Assembly: GCA_944386665.1 (NCBI GenBank)
Contig: CALXBZ010000001.1
Location: 1 to 60,867, forward strand
Reading direction: 5' to 3'
DNA from: an uncultured Clostridia bacterium
Lineage (GTDB): Bacteria > Bacillota > Clostridia > TANB77 > CAG-508
Length of the DNA stretch: 60,867 nt
In this document: positions 32,677 through 46,203 of the stretch, one piece after another
How the letters are laid out: every line of letters begins with the position of its first letter
Position numbering within the stretch: position 1 is the stretch's first letter
Notes under the pieces: model-generated
Told to the model about the DNA's origin: nothing
The model's input: only the letters and a program-made list of their open reading frames with translations
Database searches by the model: none
Position numbers and translations under genes: made by a program

Positions 32677-34257
32677 TTAGAATTTAAGAAACAATGGAAT
32701 TTTCTTATTCGTTTTAACATTTAATAGGTCTAAATTGTAAACTACCTCATTATACACATTTTCTAGTTCTTTTAAATCACATACACTTATTGATATATAG
32801 TATTTTGTTTCGTTTACATATTTTTCTGTTTTTATTTTATTTATTTTTATTTGTACTTCTTTTAAATTTATTATTTTTGTAATAAATGCATATTTTAATA
32901 TATTGTAACACAAACTTGCGCTATCAGAAAAATTAGTTATTATTTCTTTATCTATGCAATTATCAATTATACTATTCATAACTTTTTCTATTGATTCTTG
33001 TAATTTTTCTACATCACTTATAGTATTTCTTTGATATATAGGAATTAGACAATAATATCTAAACTCATATATTAACTTTTCAAGGTAATCTTTATTATTT
33101 GAGTTTTGTTCTATTTGTTTCTCAAATCTATTTAAAAATTCTAATTGTAAATTAATCATAGTTTGTTTTTTAGATTCTACATTACTCAAATTTTCTACTA
33201 CATTTTTTAGTAAATCATTTTCATTTTCTATTTTTTGTTTTTGTTTTACAAATTTACTTGGGTCTAAAAAGTTATTTATTCTCTTTATTTCTTTTAATTT
33301 TTCTTCTCTTTCTTTTGCTAATATGTCCAATAAATAACTCACACTAAAAATTTTTTTATTATTTGGCAATTTTGCATTTCTTTTATCATATTCTTTTCTT
33401 AACTTTTCTTTATCGTTTATCGTTTCGTCTATTTTTTTTATTTCATTGAATATATTTTTCTTATTTTCTGAAATTTTATCTAAAAATTTTTTCTTATTTT
33501 CCATTAATTTTAATAATTCAGAAAGTTCATTTAATTTATTTTGTATATTTGTTTTGACATGTTCATTTTGTTCAGAAACCAAAGTTAATATAATAATATA
33601 CATATATTTTTCAAAAGTTTTTGAATCTTGAATAGCCTTTTCAAAGTTTTTATTGTAAAATTCAGGATTGTCTACATTTATATTTAGCATCATAATATTT
33701 TGAAAAATCAAATTATATTCAATATTTTCTATATTTTTTATATTATTATTCCATGACCAGCCATCAAAATCTCTTATTGGCTCACTCTCATTTAGGCATA
33801 TTCCTTTTATTACAAATTCTTTAATTGCGTCTTCATAATATTCTTTATTTGAATTTTTTAATTCATGTACTTTTTTGTATTCTTCTTGTAAAAGATTCAT
33901 TTCTATTAATGAATATAATAAATCTTCTTCATTTGCATATACCAAAATAGAGCCTCTATCTACATCTATTTTGCAAATTTTATTTTCTTGCTCTAGAGGC
34001 TTACTTAGTTCTGTTTTTGGTGTAACAATTTTAATGTCAAAGCATTGTTCTTCTATAATTTTTAATATTTTTTCCATAAAGTTTTCTTTTGGAATAGCTT
34101 TAACTTTAACTTTAGTATAATCATTATATCCATTTTCAATTTTGTACAACATACTTAGTAATAAGTTTTTTACATCTTCATCATAAGTCTTATTATCTAG
34201 TATTTTTTCTAATCTATTATTGTATTCATTAGATGTCATTTTTGAAAATATTTTCAT
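32677..34257 (-). CDS. Hypothetical Lys/Glu/Asn-rich coiled-coil protein (526 aa)
   Basis: Long ORF. No motif recognised. Confidence 0.5.
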   Translation of the reverse strand: MKIFSKMTSNEYNNRLEKILDNKTYDEDVKNLLLSMLYKIENGYNDYTKVKVKAIPKENFMEKILKIIEEQCFDIKIVTPKTELSKPLEQENKICKIDVDRGSILVYANEEDLLYSLIEMNLLQEEYKKVHELKNSNKEYYEDAIKEFVIKGICLNESEPIRDFDGWSWNNNIKNIENIEYNLIFQNIMMLNINVDNPEFYNKNFEKAIQDSKTFEKYMYIIILTLVSEQNEHVKTNIQNKLNELSELLKLMENKKKFLDKISENKKNIFNEIKKIDETINDKEKLRKEYDKRNAKLPNNKKIFSVSYLLDILAKEREEKLKEIKRINNFLDPSKFVKQKQKIENENDLLKNVVENLSNVESKKQTMINLQLEFLNRFEKQIEQNSNNKDYLEKLIYEFRYYCLIPIYQRNTISDVEKLQESIEKVMNSIIDNCIDKEIITNFSDSASLCYNILKYAFITKIINLKEVQIKINKIKTEKYVNETKYYISISVCDLKELENVYNEVVYNLDLLNVKTNKKIPLFLKF

Positions 34258-34345
34258 ATTTCATTCCTTCCATAATGCACAAATCTGGTTGGAAAAAATT
34301 GTTGCTAATTAGTTTATTTTCATTTGTGCTTTACTAATGTTCTTA

Positions 34346-36709
34346 TTAAGAATTTAGTTCGTCCCAACGATCTTTAGTCATAAGAACTTCCCTTGGTTTG
34401 CTTCCTTGGTATCCAGAAATTATGCCTCTTTCCTCCATTTGATCAATTATTCTTCCTGCTCTTGCGTATCCAACTTTAAATTTTCTTTGTATAAAAGAGG
34501 TAGACGCTTGTCCTGTTTCGATTACTGTTTCTATTGCATCATTTAATAGTGGATCTGTTTCATCATCACTATCTAAGGCTCCTTCATCAATTTCTTTGTC
34601 TGTGCTATTTGCCTTTTCTATGTATTCTGTTATATCTTCTCTATATGTAGTTTCTCCTCCATTAGCTTTTATAAAGTTTACTACTTTTTCAACTTCTTTA
34701 TCTGAGATAAAAGCTCCTTGAATTCTAACTGGCTTTGGAGCTCCTGTTGGGAAAAATAACATATCTCCTTTTCCTAATAATTTATCTGCTCCAACTTGAT
34801 CTAATATTGTTCTAGAGTCAACTTGAGATGATACTGCAAAAGCAATTCTTGATGGAATATTTGCTTTAATTAATCCTGTAATTACATCTACTGATGGACG
34901 TTGCGTTGCAATTACCAAGTGCATACCAGCAGCTCTAGCTTTTTGTGCTAATCTACAAATAGCATCTTCAACATCACCTTTTGCAACCATCATTAAATCT
35001 GCAAGCTCATCAATTATTATAACGATATGTGGCAATTTTCCAAAATTATCTTCTTTCTCCACAGCTTCATTATAGCCTTTTAGATCCCTTACACCTTTAG
35101 CAGCAAACATTGCATATCTATTTTCCATTTCTTGAACAGCCCAAGCAAGCGCTCCTGCAGCCTTTTTCGGATCTGTTACTACCGGAATTAATAAATGTGG
35201 TATTCCATTATATACTGATAATTCAACTATTTTTGGATCTATCATTATAAGTTTTGCTTCGCTTGGTTTTGCTTTATATATTATGCTTGAAATTAATGTA
35301 TTTATACAAACACTCTTTCCAGATCCAGTTGCACCTGCAATCAGAACATGTGGCATTTTTGCTATATCAGTTACTATTGAATCTCCTGAAACATCTTTTC
35401 CTAATGCAAATGCAAGTTTAGATTTGTGTTCTTTAAATTTTTCATTTTCTAATATATCTCTTAAATGCACAACTTCGCTTTCTTCATTTGGAACTTCTAT
35501 TCCAACTGCTTGCTTTCCTGGAATTGGAGCTTCTATTCTAATTGTTTTAGCAGCTAAATTTAGTGCAATATCATCGGCTAAATTAGCAATTTTGCTTACA
35601 CGTACACCTTCTGCTGGCTTTAATTCGTATCTTGTTATGGCAGGGCCAACAGACACATTTTCTACTTTTGCAGAAACGCCAAAACTGTACAAAGTTTTTT
35701 GTAGCTTTGAAGCAGTATCAGCTAAAGCCCTTTTTCCACCTTTAATGCCTTTTGCTTCTCCCTCACTTAGTAAAGTTAATGGTGGGAATTCGTAATTTTC
35801 ATCTTCAACAGTAAGTGTATGTTCTAATTGTAACACTTGCTTAGTTTTATCTTCTTTTTTCTCTTCTTGTTGTTTAAACAATGTGTCTTCAATAAATTCT
35901 GGAGCCTGTGTTGGTTCTTCTTTTTCCTTTTCTTTTTTATTTTTCTTTACTTCTTTTTCTACATCAAATAATTTTGATTTTTCTATTTCTTTACCATTTA
36001 AATTAATCTGTAATTGTTCTACATCTAATGCAGCTTTTTCTTTTTCTAATTTTTCTCTTAATTTTCTTTCTTTACTTGTTTCTTTTCTATCATTAATTCC
36101 TATTATTTTATCGTTATCATCATCTTCAATTCTATTATGTATTTGTTTCTTAATCTCTTTTTTATGTTCTGCCTCTTCTATAAAATACGAAATTCTATTT
36201 ACCAAATCAATTCCAAACATAGATACACTTAGAGCTATAATTCCTCCTAAAGCTATTATAATGGTACCTACTTTTTCAAATAGCATTATTAAAGGAATAG
36301 TAGCCACAGCTCCTATAGCTCCTCCTCCAGCTCCTTTGGTGCCAAGTTCATAAAACTGACTTATAATCTCTTGCATTGATTTTCCTTCTATTTGCACCTC
36401 TTTTTGATAAATTTCATATACATTCATTATGATTGAGAAGCATAACAATAATACGGAAAACTGCACAATTTTCCTAGACCACGAAGCTTCCCCTTGATAT
36501 GCAATATAAATTGCCATTGCAAAAACACCTACAGGTAATATATATTTCACATATCCCATTATTCCACCTAGAAAAGGGCTTAAATGTTCGCCAATAAATC
36601 CTGAATTTGTGTATATTAAAACTGCTAGTAATATACTTGCTATTATCATTACAGCAATAACTACATTTATATTTACTTGCTTTTTCTTCTTTCTTCCTCT
36701 TTTTGCCAT
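34346..36709 (-). CDS. ftsK: DNA translocase FtsK/SpoIIIE
   Basis: N-terminal TM helices, Walker [20 protein letters not shown], and a C-terminal gamma winged-helix ([19 protein letters not shown]). Start placed at 36709 after GGGGGAAAAC. Confidence 0.95.
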
Positions 36710-42046: not shown

Positions 42047-44116
42047 TTATCTTCTAGAAAATTTCTTTTCTATATCATTTTTAGTCATTCTTATTGCGGT
42101 TGGTCTTCCATGTGGACATGTAAAAGGATTAGGTAATTGTAATAATCTGTCTAGCAATTGTGTTACTTCCTCTGTTGCTAACGCCATATGTGCTTTAACA
42201 GCAGCTTTACATGCTACTGTTGCAATAAATTTTTCCTCTATTTCCTGTTTTGCAGTTCTTGCAACTGTATTTATTTCGTCAAGAGTTTCTAAAAATAGTT
42301 CTTTAGTTTCCAAATCAATTAATACGTCTGGTACACCACTTAATTTTATAGTGTTTTCTCCAAACTCTTCTACCATAAATCCTGCTCTTCTGAACATTTC
42401 TCTATTGTCTTTGTATATTTCCATTTCCTTATGAGTTAAAGTTATTATGTCTGGAAGTAACATCAATTGAGAATTTTTTGTATTGTTATTGTAATAGTTT
42501 TCTTTTATTTTTTCATACATAATTCTTTCATGTGCAGCATGTTGATCAATTATGTATAAATCTGATTTCATTTCTATTATTATATAGGTATTAAATGCAA
42601 TTCCAACAAATTTATATATTGGTTTGGTTAAATATTTGCTTTCGTTTTCAAACACGGAAACATTATCTTGTTCATTAATTGGCTTAAACTCTTTTTCAAT
42701 ATTTAGTTCATCCTCTACTGTTTCTTCTTTTTTCTTAGTCGCTATTCCAAAATTTTTTTCATACATCTCTAAAAACTCAGTAGTTGTTTCATTTTCTTTT
42801 TGCATTTCAGTATCTTTTATTTCTGTATTTTCTTTTTTTACATTTGTATTAACATTTTCTATAATGTTTTGCATTCTTTTCAATTTAAACATTACATCTT
42901 CAAAAGCTTCTTCATTCTTTTTTTCGTTTTCTTGTATCTGTTGTTCATCCTTTTTGTATATGTTGTCTGTTATATCTTGAGAATATTGCTTAACACTAGG
43001 ATTTAATATATCTCTAAAATTAGTATCATTTACTTTTTCTATTTTAGGATTCTCTGTTATGGTTTCTGTATTATATTTTGTTTTCTCACTATCTATTTTA
43101 TCTATACTAGATGTATCTGCTACAAGATCTCCATTTATTAATCCTTCTCTTATTGAATGATAAATTGCTTTAAAAATTTTAGTTTCCTCTTGAAATCTAA
43201 CTTCTAATTTTGCAGGATGCACGTTAACATCAACTTTTCTTGGATCCACTTCTATATTCAGTACTAAAAATCCATGTTTTCCAATTGTTACAAAACCTTT
43301 AAAAGCTTGTTCTGCAGCACCTGATAAAGTCTTATCTTTTACAAATCTATTGTTTACAAAAAACAATTGATTGCTTCTATTTGATCTTGATATTACAGGT
43401 TTTCCAATAACTCCTTTGACCAAAATATCTTCATATGTATATTCTATATTTATTAGATTATCTGCAATTTCTTTTCCATAAATATTATATATAACTGGTT
43501 TTATATCTCCATTTCCAGATGTTTGTATTACCGTTTTTCCTGTGTTTATTAGTTTTATAGAGATTTCTGGGTGTACTAAAGCAATTCTTGTTACAACATC
43601 TTCAATATATCCAGATTCTGTAAAATCTTTTTTTAAAAACTTATATCTAACTGGAGTGTTATAGAATAGGTTTTCTATTGTTATGCTTGTACCATTTGGG
43701 CATCCAGTTTCATTTTTGCTTAATATTTTTCCTCCTTCAACTATTACCTCATAGCCATTTTCACTATCTGCTGTTTTTGATACTAAGCTTACTTTAGCAA
43801 TAGATGCAATACTTGCTAAAGCTTCTCCTCTAAACCCCATAGATTTTATTCCATCTAAATCTTCCGCATTTCGTAATTTACTTGTAGCATGTCTTTCAAA
43901 TGCAATTTCTAAGTCATCTTGCATTATTCCCTTTCCATTATCTGTAACACGAATATAAGAAATTCCACCGTTTCTTATTTCTACAGTTATTGCTGTTGCA
44001 CCAGCATCTATTGAATTTTCCATAACTTCTTTTACAACTGATGCTGGTCTTTCAATAACTTCTCCTGCAGCTATTTTATTTATTGTTAAATCATCTAATA
44101 AAACTATTTTTCCCAT
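42047..44116 (-). CDS. mutL: DNA mismatch repair protein MutL
   Basis: NKIAAGEVIERPASVVKEVMENSIDAGAT and GFRGEALASI motifs. The C-terminal endonuclease region has DQHAAHERI and CPHGRP. Confidence 0.97.
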   Translation of the reverse strand: MGKIVLLDDLTINKIAAGEVIERPASVVKEVMENSIDAGATAITVEIRNGGISYIRVTDNGKGIMQDDLEIAFERHATSKLRNAEDLDGIKSMGFRGEALASIASIAKVSLVSKTADSENGYEVIVEGGKILSKNETGCPNGTSITIENLFYNTPVRYKFLKKDFTESGYIEDVVTRIALVHPEISIKLINTGKTVIQTSGNGDIKPVIYNIYGKEIADNLINIEYTYEDILVKGVIGKPVISRSNRSNQLFFVNNRFVKDKTLSGAAEQAFKGFVTIGKHGFLVLNIEVDPRKVDVNVHPAKLEVRFQEETKIFKAIYHSIREGLINGDLVADTSSIDKIDSEKTKYNTETITENPKIEKVNDTNFRDILNPSVKQYSQDITDNIYKKDEQQIQENEKKNEEAFEDVMFKLKRMQNIIENVNTNVKKENTEIKDTEMQKENETTTEFLEMYEKNFGIATKKKEETVEDELNIEKEFKPINEQDNVSVFENESKYLTKPIYKFVGIAFNTYIIIEMKSDLYIIDQHAAHERIMYEKIKENYYNNNTKNSQLMLLPDIITLTHKEMEIYKDNREMFRRAGFMVEEFGENTIKLSGVPDVLIDLETKELFLETLDEINTVARTAKQEIEEKFIATVACKAAVKAHMALATEEVTQLLDRLLQLPNPFTCPHGRPTAIRMTKNDIEKKFSRR

Positions 44117-44317
44117 TATTTTATCCCTTTCACTCTTTTGTCCACTACTTCTTTGTAGATTATATCATTAATTATATTTCTTTGTATAGTTTTTTGCAAA
44201 ATTTCTTTTTAATTTTAAATGTTTATAAATTGTAACACATATTTTAGGTTTGAATAATATATATCATACGAAAGATTAATAAATTATTTATTATCTTTAC
44301 AAAGGGAGGTAATTCAA

Positions 44318-44422
44318 ATGGGAAGAAATTGTTGTAATAGTGAACTTCTTTGGTTCATAATATTGTTCTTATTGTTATTCTGCTGTGGATGCGGAAACAT
44401 ATGTAACAACTCTTGTTGTTAG
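44318..44422 (+). CDS. Tiny Cys-rich transmembrane peptide (34 aa), not in the ORF track
   Basis: My translation: MGRNCCNSELLWFIILFLLLFCCGCGNICNNSCC. SD AAAGGGAGG lies 7 nt upstream of the ATG. Confidence 0.6.
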   Translation: MGRNCCNSELLWFIILFLLLFCCGCGNICNNSCC

Positions 44423-44465
44423 TAAATAATTGCAATTAGTACTTAATATAAAGGAGGTGAATTAA

Positions 44466-44597
44466 ATGCCAGACAATAATAGATGCTGTGGAAACAATTG
44501 TGGTTGTTTCGGAGGTAATAGTTGTATTTGGATTTTCATCATATTAATTATTATATGTTGCTGTTGTGGGCAAAATAACGTAGGTGGATGTTGCTAA
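44466..44597 (+). CDS. Tiny Cys-rich transmembrane peptide (43 aa), paralogous in design to the preceding one
   Basis: My translation: MPDNNRCCGNNCGCFGGNSCIWIFIILIIICCCCGQNNVGGCC. SD AAAGGAGGTG upstream. Followed by a terminator. Confidence 0.6.
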   Translation: MPDNNRCCGNNCGCFGGNSCIWIFIILIIICCCCGQNNVGGCC

Positions 44598-44617
44598 TTA
44601 GTTCGCAAATTTTATAC

Positions 44618-44655
44618 AAAAAATCCAGCTCCCACAGATTGAGCTGGATTTTTTG
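44618..44655. terminator. Bidirectional rho-independent terminator
   Basis: ATCCAGCTC (44623-44631) / GAGCTGGAT (44641-44649), A-run before and T-run after. It lies between convergent genes. Confidence 0.7.
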
Positions 44656-44688: not shown

Positions 44689-46203
44689 TTAATATTCATT
44701 AGTATCTTTTGTTGATAGTTCGACATTTCCTTCACTATCTAGTACTATATATTTTTTTAGATATTCTGTATTACTATATTCTGTATAATAATCTAGTTCT
44801 TTACTTCCACTTAATATAATAACTATTCTGTTATTTACTATTTGCATATCTGCACTGTAAATTGAATCCATTGTTGTATCTGCATTCATTTTTTTTATTA
44901 CATTTCCTTTATAGTCAACCATCATTATTGCATCTTTATTGTCATTACCTATTAGTAATATTCTATCTGATAACATTGATATTGCTATTTTATTTCCTAC
45001 AAGTACAGGTTCTATTACATTTTCGCCTGTCGTCAAATCTATTAAATATAAATCATTGTCTATAACTACGGAAAGTTGAGATGCAGTATAGTCCATAGGA
45101 GTGCTATATATGTCAAAATCAGAAGATTTATAATCAAATTCTCTTCCCCATATTTTATTAAAATCTTTGTCATAATAATCCATATATAATTTCTTTGTGC
45201 TTTCTTCATGAGTTGTTACAATAAAATGTTGAAAATCTGCTGATATAAATAAATGTTTGTTAATTGGTACAAAATCTTTACTTGTATATCCTATATATCC
45301 TATTTCCCTTAACATTGCAAATTCCTTAAAGTTGGCATTTGTTTGATTATCTAAAGTTACAATATACATTGGGTCTGCAGCAGAATATCCATATGCTTGT
45401 GTATCCGCTGGTTCCGTAATTTTTATATCATTTCCAAATATGTATTTTGCAACTTTTGTAATATCATCCAAATTAAATCTTCTCTCTTTTGCTATGTCGT
45501 ATGAATATATTGAATTTATTACTGGAACTGTATATGTCTTTCCATTAACTTCAAATTCCTCAACTCCAGTATATATACCATATACTATTATCTCGTCATC
45601 CTTTATATATCTTTCATCTAACTGTTTGCTTTTAATTACAAATAATTCTGATTCTTCATAGCTTTCTAACTCTCCCTCTGGCGAGTCAAATCCTTCATAT
45701 CCTATTACTCCCATGCATATAAATTCATCATTTGTAGATTTTATTACCTTCTTTATTACGCAATCTATTTTTACTTGTGCATCTTGGTATACCTTAGGAT
45801 ATCGTTGCAAGTCTTCAGACTTATATACATAAATATAATTATTATCAAAATATCTTAAAACGTCATATTGTGTATCATCTAGTTTTAAATTTTTATTTCC
45901 GCTTTTCATGTTAGAAAAACTTAATGTTTTAGTGCTTACCACTTGTCCATTTGCACCAATTTGCAGTATTGATTCATTCTTATTGTCTTTATTTGATAGT
46001 AGAAAAACGCCTAATGCTACACACGCAATAACACATAATACAATAATTACAATTAATATAATTGTTAATTTTTTGTTTGTTTTTTTTCTGTGTTCTTGTT
46101 CTGTGTTCTTATTCTGTGTGCCCTCTTCTTCAATCTTATTGCCACATTTAGGGCAAAATAATTCTCCTTCTTTTATTTCATTTCCACATTTGTTACAAAA
46201 CAT
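44689..46203 (-). CDS. Zinc-ribbon, single-TM protein with a large extracytoplasmic domain (504 aa)
   Basis: N-terminus FCNKCGNEIKEGELFCPKCGNKI (double CxxC), a TM helix ILIVIIVLCVIACVALGVFLL, then a beta-rich domain. Confidence 0.6.
   Translation of the reverse strand: MFCNKCGNEIKEGELFCPKCGNKIEEEGTQNKNTEQEHRKKTNKKLTIILIVIIVLCVIACVALGVFLLSNKDNKNESILQIGANGQVVSTKTLSFSNMKSGNKNLKLDDTQYDVLRYFDNNYIYVYKSEDLQRYPKVYQDAQVKIDCVIKKVIKSTNDEFICMGVIGYEGFDSPEGELESYEESELFVIKSKQLDERYIKDDEIIVYGIYTGVEEFEVNGKTYTVPVINSIYSYDIAKERRFNLDDITKVAKYIFGNDIKITEPADTQAYGYSAADPMYIVTLDNQTNANFKEFAMLREIGYIGYTSKDFVPINKHLFISADFQHFIVTTHEESTKKLYMDYYDKDFNKIWGREFDYKSSDFDIYSTPMDYTASQLSVVIDNDLYLIDLTTGENVIEPVLVGNKIAISMLSDRILLIGNDNKDAIMMVDYKGNVIKKMNADTTMDSIYSADMQIVNNRIVIILSGSKELDYYTEYSNTEYLKKYIVLDSEGNVELSTKDTNEY

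Follow-up and report, generated by a model that had tools for sequence, protein, structure and literature searches.

The window analysed here, a 60,867-nucleotide stretch of DNA from an uncultured Clostridia bacterium (GenBank assembly GCA_944386665.1, contig CALXBZ010000001.1), contains two very small open reading frames (ORFs), ORF1 and ORF2, which encode cysteine-rich peptides with a single hydrophobic helix. Positions 44232–44655 are predicted to form a self-contained two-gene operon comprising a sigma-K-type promoter, two genes each led by a Shine-Dalgarno sequence (SD), and one terminator (Table 1). The products are probably late mother-cell membrane micro-peptides of the spore envelope, synthesized under sigma-K control, whose cysteine clusters would serve in cross-linking or metal binding.

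Both frames are preserved among related genomes. In a DNA search of 40 relatives, 19 of the 21 remaining genomes of the genus, as well as two sister genera, showed a match at 67–83% identity that begins at the promoter and extends to the stop codon of ORF2. All 20 retrieved loci keep both frames open, with an SD before each and the order unchanged (ORF2 is truncated on one fragmentary contig, L012), and an SD precedes ORF1 in 21 of 21 loci. Codon alignments, in which synonymous divergence is saturated, gave ratios of non-synonymous to synonymous change (pN/pS) of 0.12 for ORF1 and 0.18 for ORF2; variable columns at codon positions 1, 2 and 3 number 12, 6 and 22 in ORF1 and 10, 4 and 19 in ORF2. 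The invariant residues other than cysteine include S-E-x-L-W-F-I-I-L-F in ORF1 and R6, F-G-G, W-I-x-I and N37 in ORF2. Since frames, SDs, pN/pS and invariant non-cysteine residues all point the same way, ORF1 and ORF2 can be regarded as translated genes rather than cysteine-codon leaders or RNA elements. Both are under purifying selection and are kept as a pair. The first-pass annotation, which relied on the sequence of the window, had treated the frames as hidden genes, and the conservation of frames, SDs and gene order in about 20 genomes bears this out.

The two ORFs and the strong SDs before them are present exactly as that annotation wrote them; its cysteine counts, 9 and 12, were each one too high, the true numbers being 8 in ORF1 and 11 in ORF2. 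On base composition (28% G+C), at least 8 cysteines in 34 codons would be expected by chance with a probability of about 2e-6, and at least 11 in 43 codons with a probability of about 7e-9. The common design proposed for the peptides was also confirmed: a head rich in cysteine, glycine and asparagine, the motif W-(F/I)-I-I-L, a strongly hydrophobic helix with a CC(C)(C)G cluster at its end, and a short tail that finishes in cysteine. The best 15-residue windows reach a hydropathy of 2.9–3.3. Profile-profile comparison indicates that the ORF1 and ORF2 families are paralogous (probability 90%, E = 1.4e-6), and it is solely through this comparison that ORF1 is joined to the ORF2-type family described below. 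The genes are separated by a spacer of 43 nucleotides and followed by a terminator that is as real as it had been claimed to be: the hairpin has a folding free energy (dG) of -21.5 kcal/mol (z = -5.9), and 0 of 200 shuffled sequences fold equally well. The 9-base loop was the sole reason why a consensus pattern scanner overlooked it.

The promoter assigned to the operon stands out by its conservation. GTAACAC-N13-GAATAnTATATA is near-invariant across 21 aligned loci of the genus and its taxonomic family, in variable surroundings; GTAACAC itself occurs in 20 of the 21, the remaining locus (L029) having TCACAC. In a sister genus (g16, locus L052) the aligned -10 element is a perfect CATATTATA, and distant members of the peptide family carry an AC element 16–17 nucleotides upstream of CATAnnnTA. 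The published sigma-K consensus consists of a -35 AC and a -10 element resembling CATATAAT, as in sigK P2; at the -35 position sigma-K uses 'AC' and sigma-E 'ATA' (PMC3789822). The promoter upstream of ORF1 is accordingly best described as a putative sigma-K-type promoter, AC-N16-(C>A)ATAnnnTA. When the consensus sequences of sigma-E (-35 ATA), sigma-G/F, sigma-H and sigma-A were also compared by eye, only sigma-K fitted the positions conserved at a distance.

The strict motif AC-N15-17-CATAnnnT[AG] was found upstream of 11 of 17 first genes in distant loci (16 of 17 with a relaxed pattern), and it is absent upstream of all 9 second genes and all 59 control ORFs of the same loci; with shuffled upstream regions the mean was 0.28 and the maximum 3. 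Because the motif marks 11 of 17 first genes versus 0 of 9 second genes, the second gene seems to rely on the promoter of the first, and the pair would therefore constitute an operon. Across the host genome, the full promoter string has its sole complete match at this locus; five looser matches to GTAACA[CT]-N11-15-GAATA do not extend to the remainder of that block.

The host genome (1.22 Mb, 28% G+C, 97% complete) contains matches to spo0A (380 bits), spoIVA (747 bits) and sigK (305 bits; cut-off 298.65), and thus has the core sporulation machinery. SpoIVA was found in 302 of 399 sampled Clostridia genomes. Of the 78 genomes that carry the peptide family, 70 have it, compared with 232 of the 321 that do not carry the family (odds ratio 3.4, Fisher p = 0.001), and among the 25 strongest carriers (E <= 1e-6) it is present in 24.

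Some matches to sporulation genes came in pieces. SpoIVA, which is one frame of 510 amino acids in the host genome, is split into two adjacent parts (positions 1 to ~84 and ~81 to 492 of the hidden Markov model, HMM) in eight genomes of the same genus (G001, G003, G005, G006, G007, G009, G010 and G012); a frameshift, a recoding site or an artefact of assembly may be the cause. At contigs C26:1321-2379 and C5:15379-16185, sigma-factor-like matches to the SigK model are split over adjacent frames or broken by stops; they may stem from errors in assembly or belong to further sporulation sigma genes that are frameshifted or recoded.

ORF2 is a member of a family with the outline MPENRGCGCG...C(I/L)WIII...CCCG...GCC, in which the core varies as C-(I/L)-W-I-(I/F)-I...CCCG and the N-terminal MPENR and C-terminal GCC are conserved; MPENRGCGCGFGFGDDCIWIIIVLILICCCCGGNRGGCC is a typical member. 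Profile A3 matches ORF2 with E = 6.6e-14, although ORF2 is included among the 24 rows of that profile. Profile A1, built from ORF2 orthologues alone, recovered 75 representative clusters in an exhaustive HMM search, and a word-indexed profile search gave 140 clusters, some of them present on hundreds of contigs. In these two sets no cluster is named beyond 'hypothetical protein'. Of 399 Clostridia genomes searched in six frames with a profile, 78 contain the family, which is represented in 46 of 216 genera; many of these genomes have two copies 70–300 nucleotides apart. Most carriers also possess sporulation genes. Named carriers are metagenome-assembled genomes of Oscillospiraceae, Ruminococcaceae and 'uncultured Clostridium/Clostridia', and the loci obtained in searches with A1 and A3 (10 and 4, respectively, most candidates not being confirmed by tblastn) come without exception from metagenome-derived assemblies. 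ORF1 and ORF2 have no Pfam or NCBIfam match at E <= 10, save for a meaningless match of ORF2 to WBP-1 (Pfam; E = 2.8, 9 bits against a cut-off of 28 bits), and no curated model, informative name or published description was found for the family. This family of cysteine-rich clostridial micro-peptides is undescribed in public resources; its kind, tiny tandem membrane peptides linked to sporulation, is known from YjcZ. Three metagenomic proteins (P0027, P0045 and P0052) are single ORFs with two complete cysteine-rich head-helix-tail units and resemble a fused tandem pair.

Peptides of the ORF1 type (SELLWFIILFLLLFCCGCG) are restricted to the taxonomic family of the window. In a related lineage (GCA_949443805.1, locus L186) the same promoter, divergent from mutL, directly precedes a single ORF2-type gene, and ORF1 is absent. 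ORF1 is therefore regarded as a lineage-specific paralogue of ORF2, a duplicate that lies between this gene and the promoter. A tblastn-type search of the host genome with ORF2 matched ORF2 alone. Further copies, for which the first-pass annotation had suggested a search, are nevertheless represented by a third paralogue of 66 amino acids, detected only with a position weight matrix of the promoter (contig C40:1920-2182, minus strand, locus L191). This peptide, MQDDNRGNGCGCACDDMQRGNCCNNNCGGLFGGLFGRNGCGSGDNGILFFIIIFLLLFTNNGCGCR, is rich in cysteine, glycine and asparagine and has one helix (outline MQDDNR...CGGLFGGLFG...ILFFIIIFLLLFTNNGCGCR). Its gene adjoins a tRNA gene, is preceded by a perfect promoter motif (GTAACAC-N15-CATACTATA) and by the SD AGGAGG, and is followed by a terminator; of the 15 further genomes searched in the genus, 13 retain it together with its promoter.

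The likeness to the YjcZ peptides (TIGR01732 'tiny_TM_bacill'; PF09680 YjcZ_2) of spore-forming Bacilli, raised in the first-pass annotation, stands as an analogy and fails as family membership. Several properties are shared. YjcZ peptides are tiny (~27–60 amino acids), with a variable glycine-rich head (sometimes CGCG), one hydrophobic helix ending in an invariant glycine, and a short tail that often contains cysteine; ORF1 and ORF2 likewise have fewer than about 60 residues, a variable glycine-rich head and one hydrophobic helix ending in glycine. Tandem copies are usual in both, with two to three per YjcZ locus and a pair in 21 of 21 loci of the genus and taxonomic family here. YjcZ is found in spore formers, and the present family mostly in genomes with SpoIVA. 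The predicted promoter class agrees as well. The yjcZ gene is assigned to the sigma-K regulon of Bacillus subtilis (PMC517825), and within a reference set of 79 bona fide YjcZ peptides from Bacilli, gathered with a back-translated pattern, 29 genes have the strict AC-N15-17-CATAnnnT[AG] upstream.

Homology between the two could not be detected. ORF1, ORF2, the C40 paralogue and typical family members have no match to TIGR01732 or PF09680 even at E <= 10, whereas Bacillus-type YjcZ controls score 39–47 bits on both models (curated cut-offs 21.35 bits for TIGR01732 and 21 bits for PF09680). Genome-wide searches with TIGR01732 returned nothing at these loci and did match the B. subtilis control genome. 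In an hhalign comparison, A3 and the YjcZ alignment A4 gave a probability of 13% with one aligned column. With both HMMs unmatched and this hhalign result, YjcZ membership was rejected. The sequences also differ in character: the YjcZ helix reads FALIVVLFILLIIVG, with the block VVLFILLIIVG invariant in A4, as against C(I/L)WI(I/F)I.LI..CCCG here; cysteines account for about one quarter of the residues in the present family and occupy fixed positions on either side of the helix; and the MPENR N-terminus and GCC C-terminus are conserved. The taxonomic ranges are complementary, TIGR01732 matching 1 of 400 Clostridia genomes and the present family occurring in 78 of 399. That single TIGR01732 match (L064) was judged spurious: no small ORF fits it, and it lies directly downstream of a permease-like membrane gene. 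On the strength of the shared properties and complementary taxonomy, and given the lack of homology, the family can be read as a functional counterpart of YjcZ and not as a member of it.

The proposed course of events could be as follows. At a late stage of sporulation, RNA polymerase with sigma-K would transcribe the operon in the mother cell. By their single helix the peptides would insert into a membrane derived from the mother cell, most likely the outer membrane of the forespore, beneath the coat. The cysteine clusters flanking the helix (CC/CxC in the head, CCC(C)G at the helix end and the terminal CC) would then tie this membrane to cysteine-rich outer layers by disulfide cross-linking or metal binding. 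A more far-reaching proposal, advanced here as a tentative possibility, is that an undescribed family, widespread in sporulating Clostridia but largely missed by gene callers, fills the place that YjcZ has in Bacilli; its members would be membrane-anchored 'rivets', metallothionein-like or disulfide-forming and made under sigma-K, joining the outer forespore membrane to a cysteine-rich coat or exosporium lattice, with ORF1 and ORF2 forming a hetero-oligomer.

Several observations weigh against the main reading, a late mother-cell origin and a place in the spore envelope. The -10 element of the genus is AATAnTATA, in which the highly conserved C of CATA is replaced. The strict sigma-K motif selects 10 of 935 SD-led ORFs in the host genome, and this set, which mixes cysteine-rich or coat-like candidates with housekeeping genes, does not by itself validate a regulon because of that mixture. 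The enrichment of SpoIVA among carriers is real but modest, since 76% of the sampled Clostridia have SpoIVA. Membrane insertion, topology, localization and cysteine chemistry are inferred throughout, and the AlphaFold2 model of ORF2, a single helix at residues 19–32 with disordered ends, is of low confidence (mean predicted local distance difference test score, pLDDT, 54.6). Two further points, a weak sigma-A-like sequence TTGTAA-17-AATAAT (9/12) that overlaps the conserved block and the eight carriers in which SpoIVA was not matched (three of these genomes are 97–99% complete), would also suit vegetative or stress-induced small membrane proteins with a sigma-A-type promoter, for example membrane-anchored thiol or metal buffers; the dense CC and CxC motifs resemble those of metallothioneins. 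Such a function is nevertheless unlikely. What distant genomes conserve is AC-N16/17-CATAnnnTA and not TTGACA/TATAAT, and SpoIVA is present in nearly all of the strongest carriers. The sigma-A promoter of this genome is exemplified by that of mutL (44159–44188, minus strand), a textbook case with TATACA-18-TATAAT, also written TATACA-18-TGATATAAT, and an upstream TG (extended -10), which is kept across the genus back to back with the micro-peptide promoter.

The timing implied by a late mother-cell promoter would also suit cell lysis. Membrane-active peptides of the holin or toxin kind, permeabilizing the mother cell for lysis and spore release, or more generally type I toxins, would match ORF1 and ORF2 in size, in the single hydrophobic helix and in the lack of an enzyme partner. 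Invariant cysteine clusters and conserved MPENR and GCC ends are, however, foreign to known holins and type I toxins. The peptides contain almost no charged residues, and the charged tail usual in type I toxins is absent; no conserved antisense element was seen, promoter-like sites on the minus strand reaching no more than 9/12; and the pairs occupy stable chromosomal positions and not mobile contexts. This function is therefore considered improbable.

Short length, very high cysteine content and tandem copies are also features of precursors of ribosomally synthesized and post-translationally modified peptides (RiPPs) of the ranthipeptide, sactipeptide or SCIFF type, or of secreted bacteriocins, with the maturase encoded elsewhere. 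The first-pass annotation was correct in noting no adjacent maturase: in none of the loci is there a linked gene for a radical-SAM enzyme, cyclase, protease or transporter, and the neighbours differ between genomes (mutL, the zinc-ribbon membrane protein, tRNA genes, groES/groEL and unrelated genes). Moreover, the most conserved part is a hydrophobic helix of 14–15 residues, atypical for a core or leader, and no NCBIfam RiPP precursor model was matched, so that a precursor role is very doubtful. Finally, untranslated frames acting as a regulatory RNA, or as a leader that senses the supply of cysteine or tRNA-Cys, would agree with the abundance of cysteine codons and a short transcript ending at a terminator, but can hardly be reconciled with the absence of a same-strand gene downstream (the next gene is convergent), with selection on non-cysteine residues (W, F, I, L, G, N, R) that spares third codon positions, and with strong SDs retained in every genome.

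Some other known systems resemble the peptides in part. Cysteine-rich outer spore layers are held by disulfide cross-links. Two sources (PMC6101409, PMC7333573) describe cysteine-rich late mother-cell proteins as building the outermost spore layers. CdeC and CdeM of C. difficile, CsxA of Clostridium, and CotY, CotZ and ExsY of Bacillus share with the present peptides their richness in cysteine and their late mother-cell genes (predicted for the peptides). They are, however, soluble proteins of ~15–45 kDa that self-assemble into lattices, whereas the peptides have 34–43 amino acids, are dominated by a membrane-type helix and show no sequence similarity to them. SpoVM and CmpA of B. subtilis are mother-cell micro-peptides of fewer than 40 amino acids which work at the outer membrane of the forespore while the coat is assembled and are routinely missed by annotation. 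SpoVM has an amphipathic, cysteine-free helix and is controlled by sigma-E; it is unlike the present peptides in sequence and composition. The eukaryotic CYSTM proteins are small and tail-anchored, with a cysteine-rich stretch merged with a single transmembrane helix, and roles in stress or in the handling of metals have been proposed for them. Their cysteines lie within the C-terminal helix only; there is no sign of common descent, although no test aimed at it was made.

The gap that contains the pair is 572 nucleotides long. It is bounded on one side by the start of mutL (44116) and on the other by the convergent gene (stop at 44689), for which the terminator of the operon probably serves as well.

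Table 1. Coordinates of the micro-peptide operon, its signals and its neighbours in the window.
Feature	Position	Strand	Description
Promoter -35 region	44232–44238	+	GTAACAC, sigma-K-type (putative); 'AC' at 44235–44236
Promoter -10 element	44253–44261	+	AATAATATA; putative mother-cell sigma type, CATAnnnTA with A for the first C; 16 nucleotides past AC
ORF1 Shine-Dalgarno sequence	44304–44309	+	GGGAGG, 8 nucleotides upstream of ATG
ORF1	44318–44422	+	34 amino acids, 8 Cys, one hydrophobic helix; full peptide MGRNCCNSELLWFIILFLLLFCCGCGNICNNSCC; as listed LLWFIILFLLLFCC
ORF2 Shine-Dalgarno sequence	44452–44459	+	AGGAGGTG, 6 nucleotides upstream of ATG
ORF2	44466–44597	+	43 amino acids, 11 Cys, hydrophobic helix at residues ~19–34; full peptide MPDNNRCCGNNCGCFGGNSCIWIFIILIIICCCCGQNNVGGCC; as listed CIWIFIILIIICCCC
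Intrinsic terminator hairpin	44617–44655		15-bp stem, A-run before, U-run after; common to ORF1 and ORF2
mutL	42047–44116	minus	Divergent neighbour
Zinc-ribbon membrane protein	44689–46203	minus	504 amino acids; convergent neighbour

Other cysteine-rich candidates were noticed in the same genome. At 34108–34623 of the window (minus strand) lies the gene of a membrane protein of 171 amino acids with a DUF2651 match (PF10852, 28 bits) and a C-terminal tail rich in cysteine and asparagine (NGCNCN...NNCNNNCNICRNRNNNCNN); GTA-AC-N17-CATATTATA is found 33 nucleotides upstream of its start codon, and the product may be another late-sporulation cysteine-rich membrane protein. Contig C31:11930-12166 (minus strand) encodes an unannotated protein of 78 amino acids, very hydrophobic, probably multi-spanning and with no Pfam match; its 8 Cys form CC at the N-terminus and CC...CCC...C at the C-terminus, and the gene is preceded by a relaxed sigma-K-like motif. 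A candidate spore-coat protein of 151 amino acids is encoded at contig C15:1173-1628 (+ strand). It shows a weak match to carboxypeptidase-regulatory-like beta-sandwich domains and has a tail rich in cysteine, lysine and proline (CTECHHSGECLKGVEMDCKKDECKPCKPEKPCNPC), with GTA-AC-N16-CATAATATA upstream of the gene.

About one-fifth of the sampled Clostridia genomes keep one to three genes of this family, and many of these genomes belong to uncultured gut species with reduced genomes, of which the present 1.2-Mb organism is an example. Inventories of spore genes in gut Firmicutes and 'sporulation signature' analyses miss the family because its genes are usually not called and have never been named. 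For a bacterium, a peptide that is one-quarter cysteine and built around a membrane helix has an unusual chemistry. If the peptides do link the membrane to the coat or store metal, they would represent a new component of spore envelope assembly in anaerobes and would offer a way into the function of the YjcZ peptides of Bacillus, which are just as unexplained.

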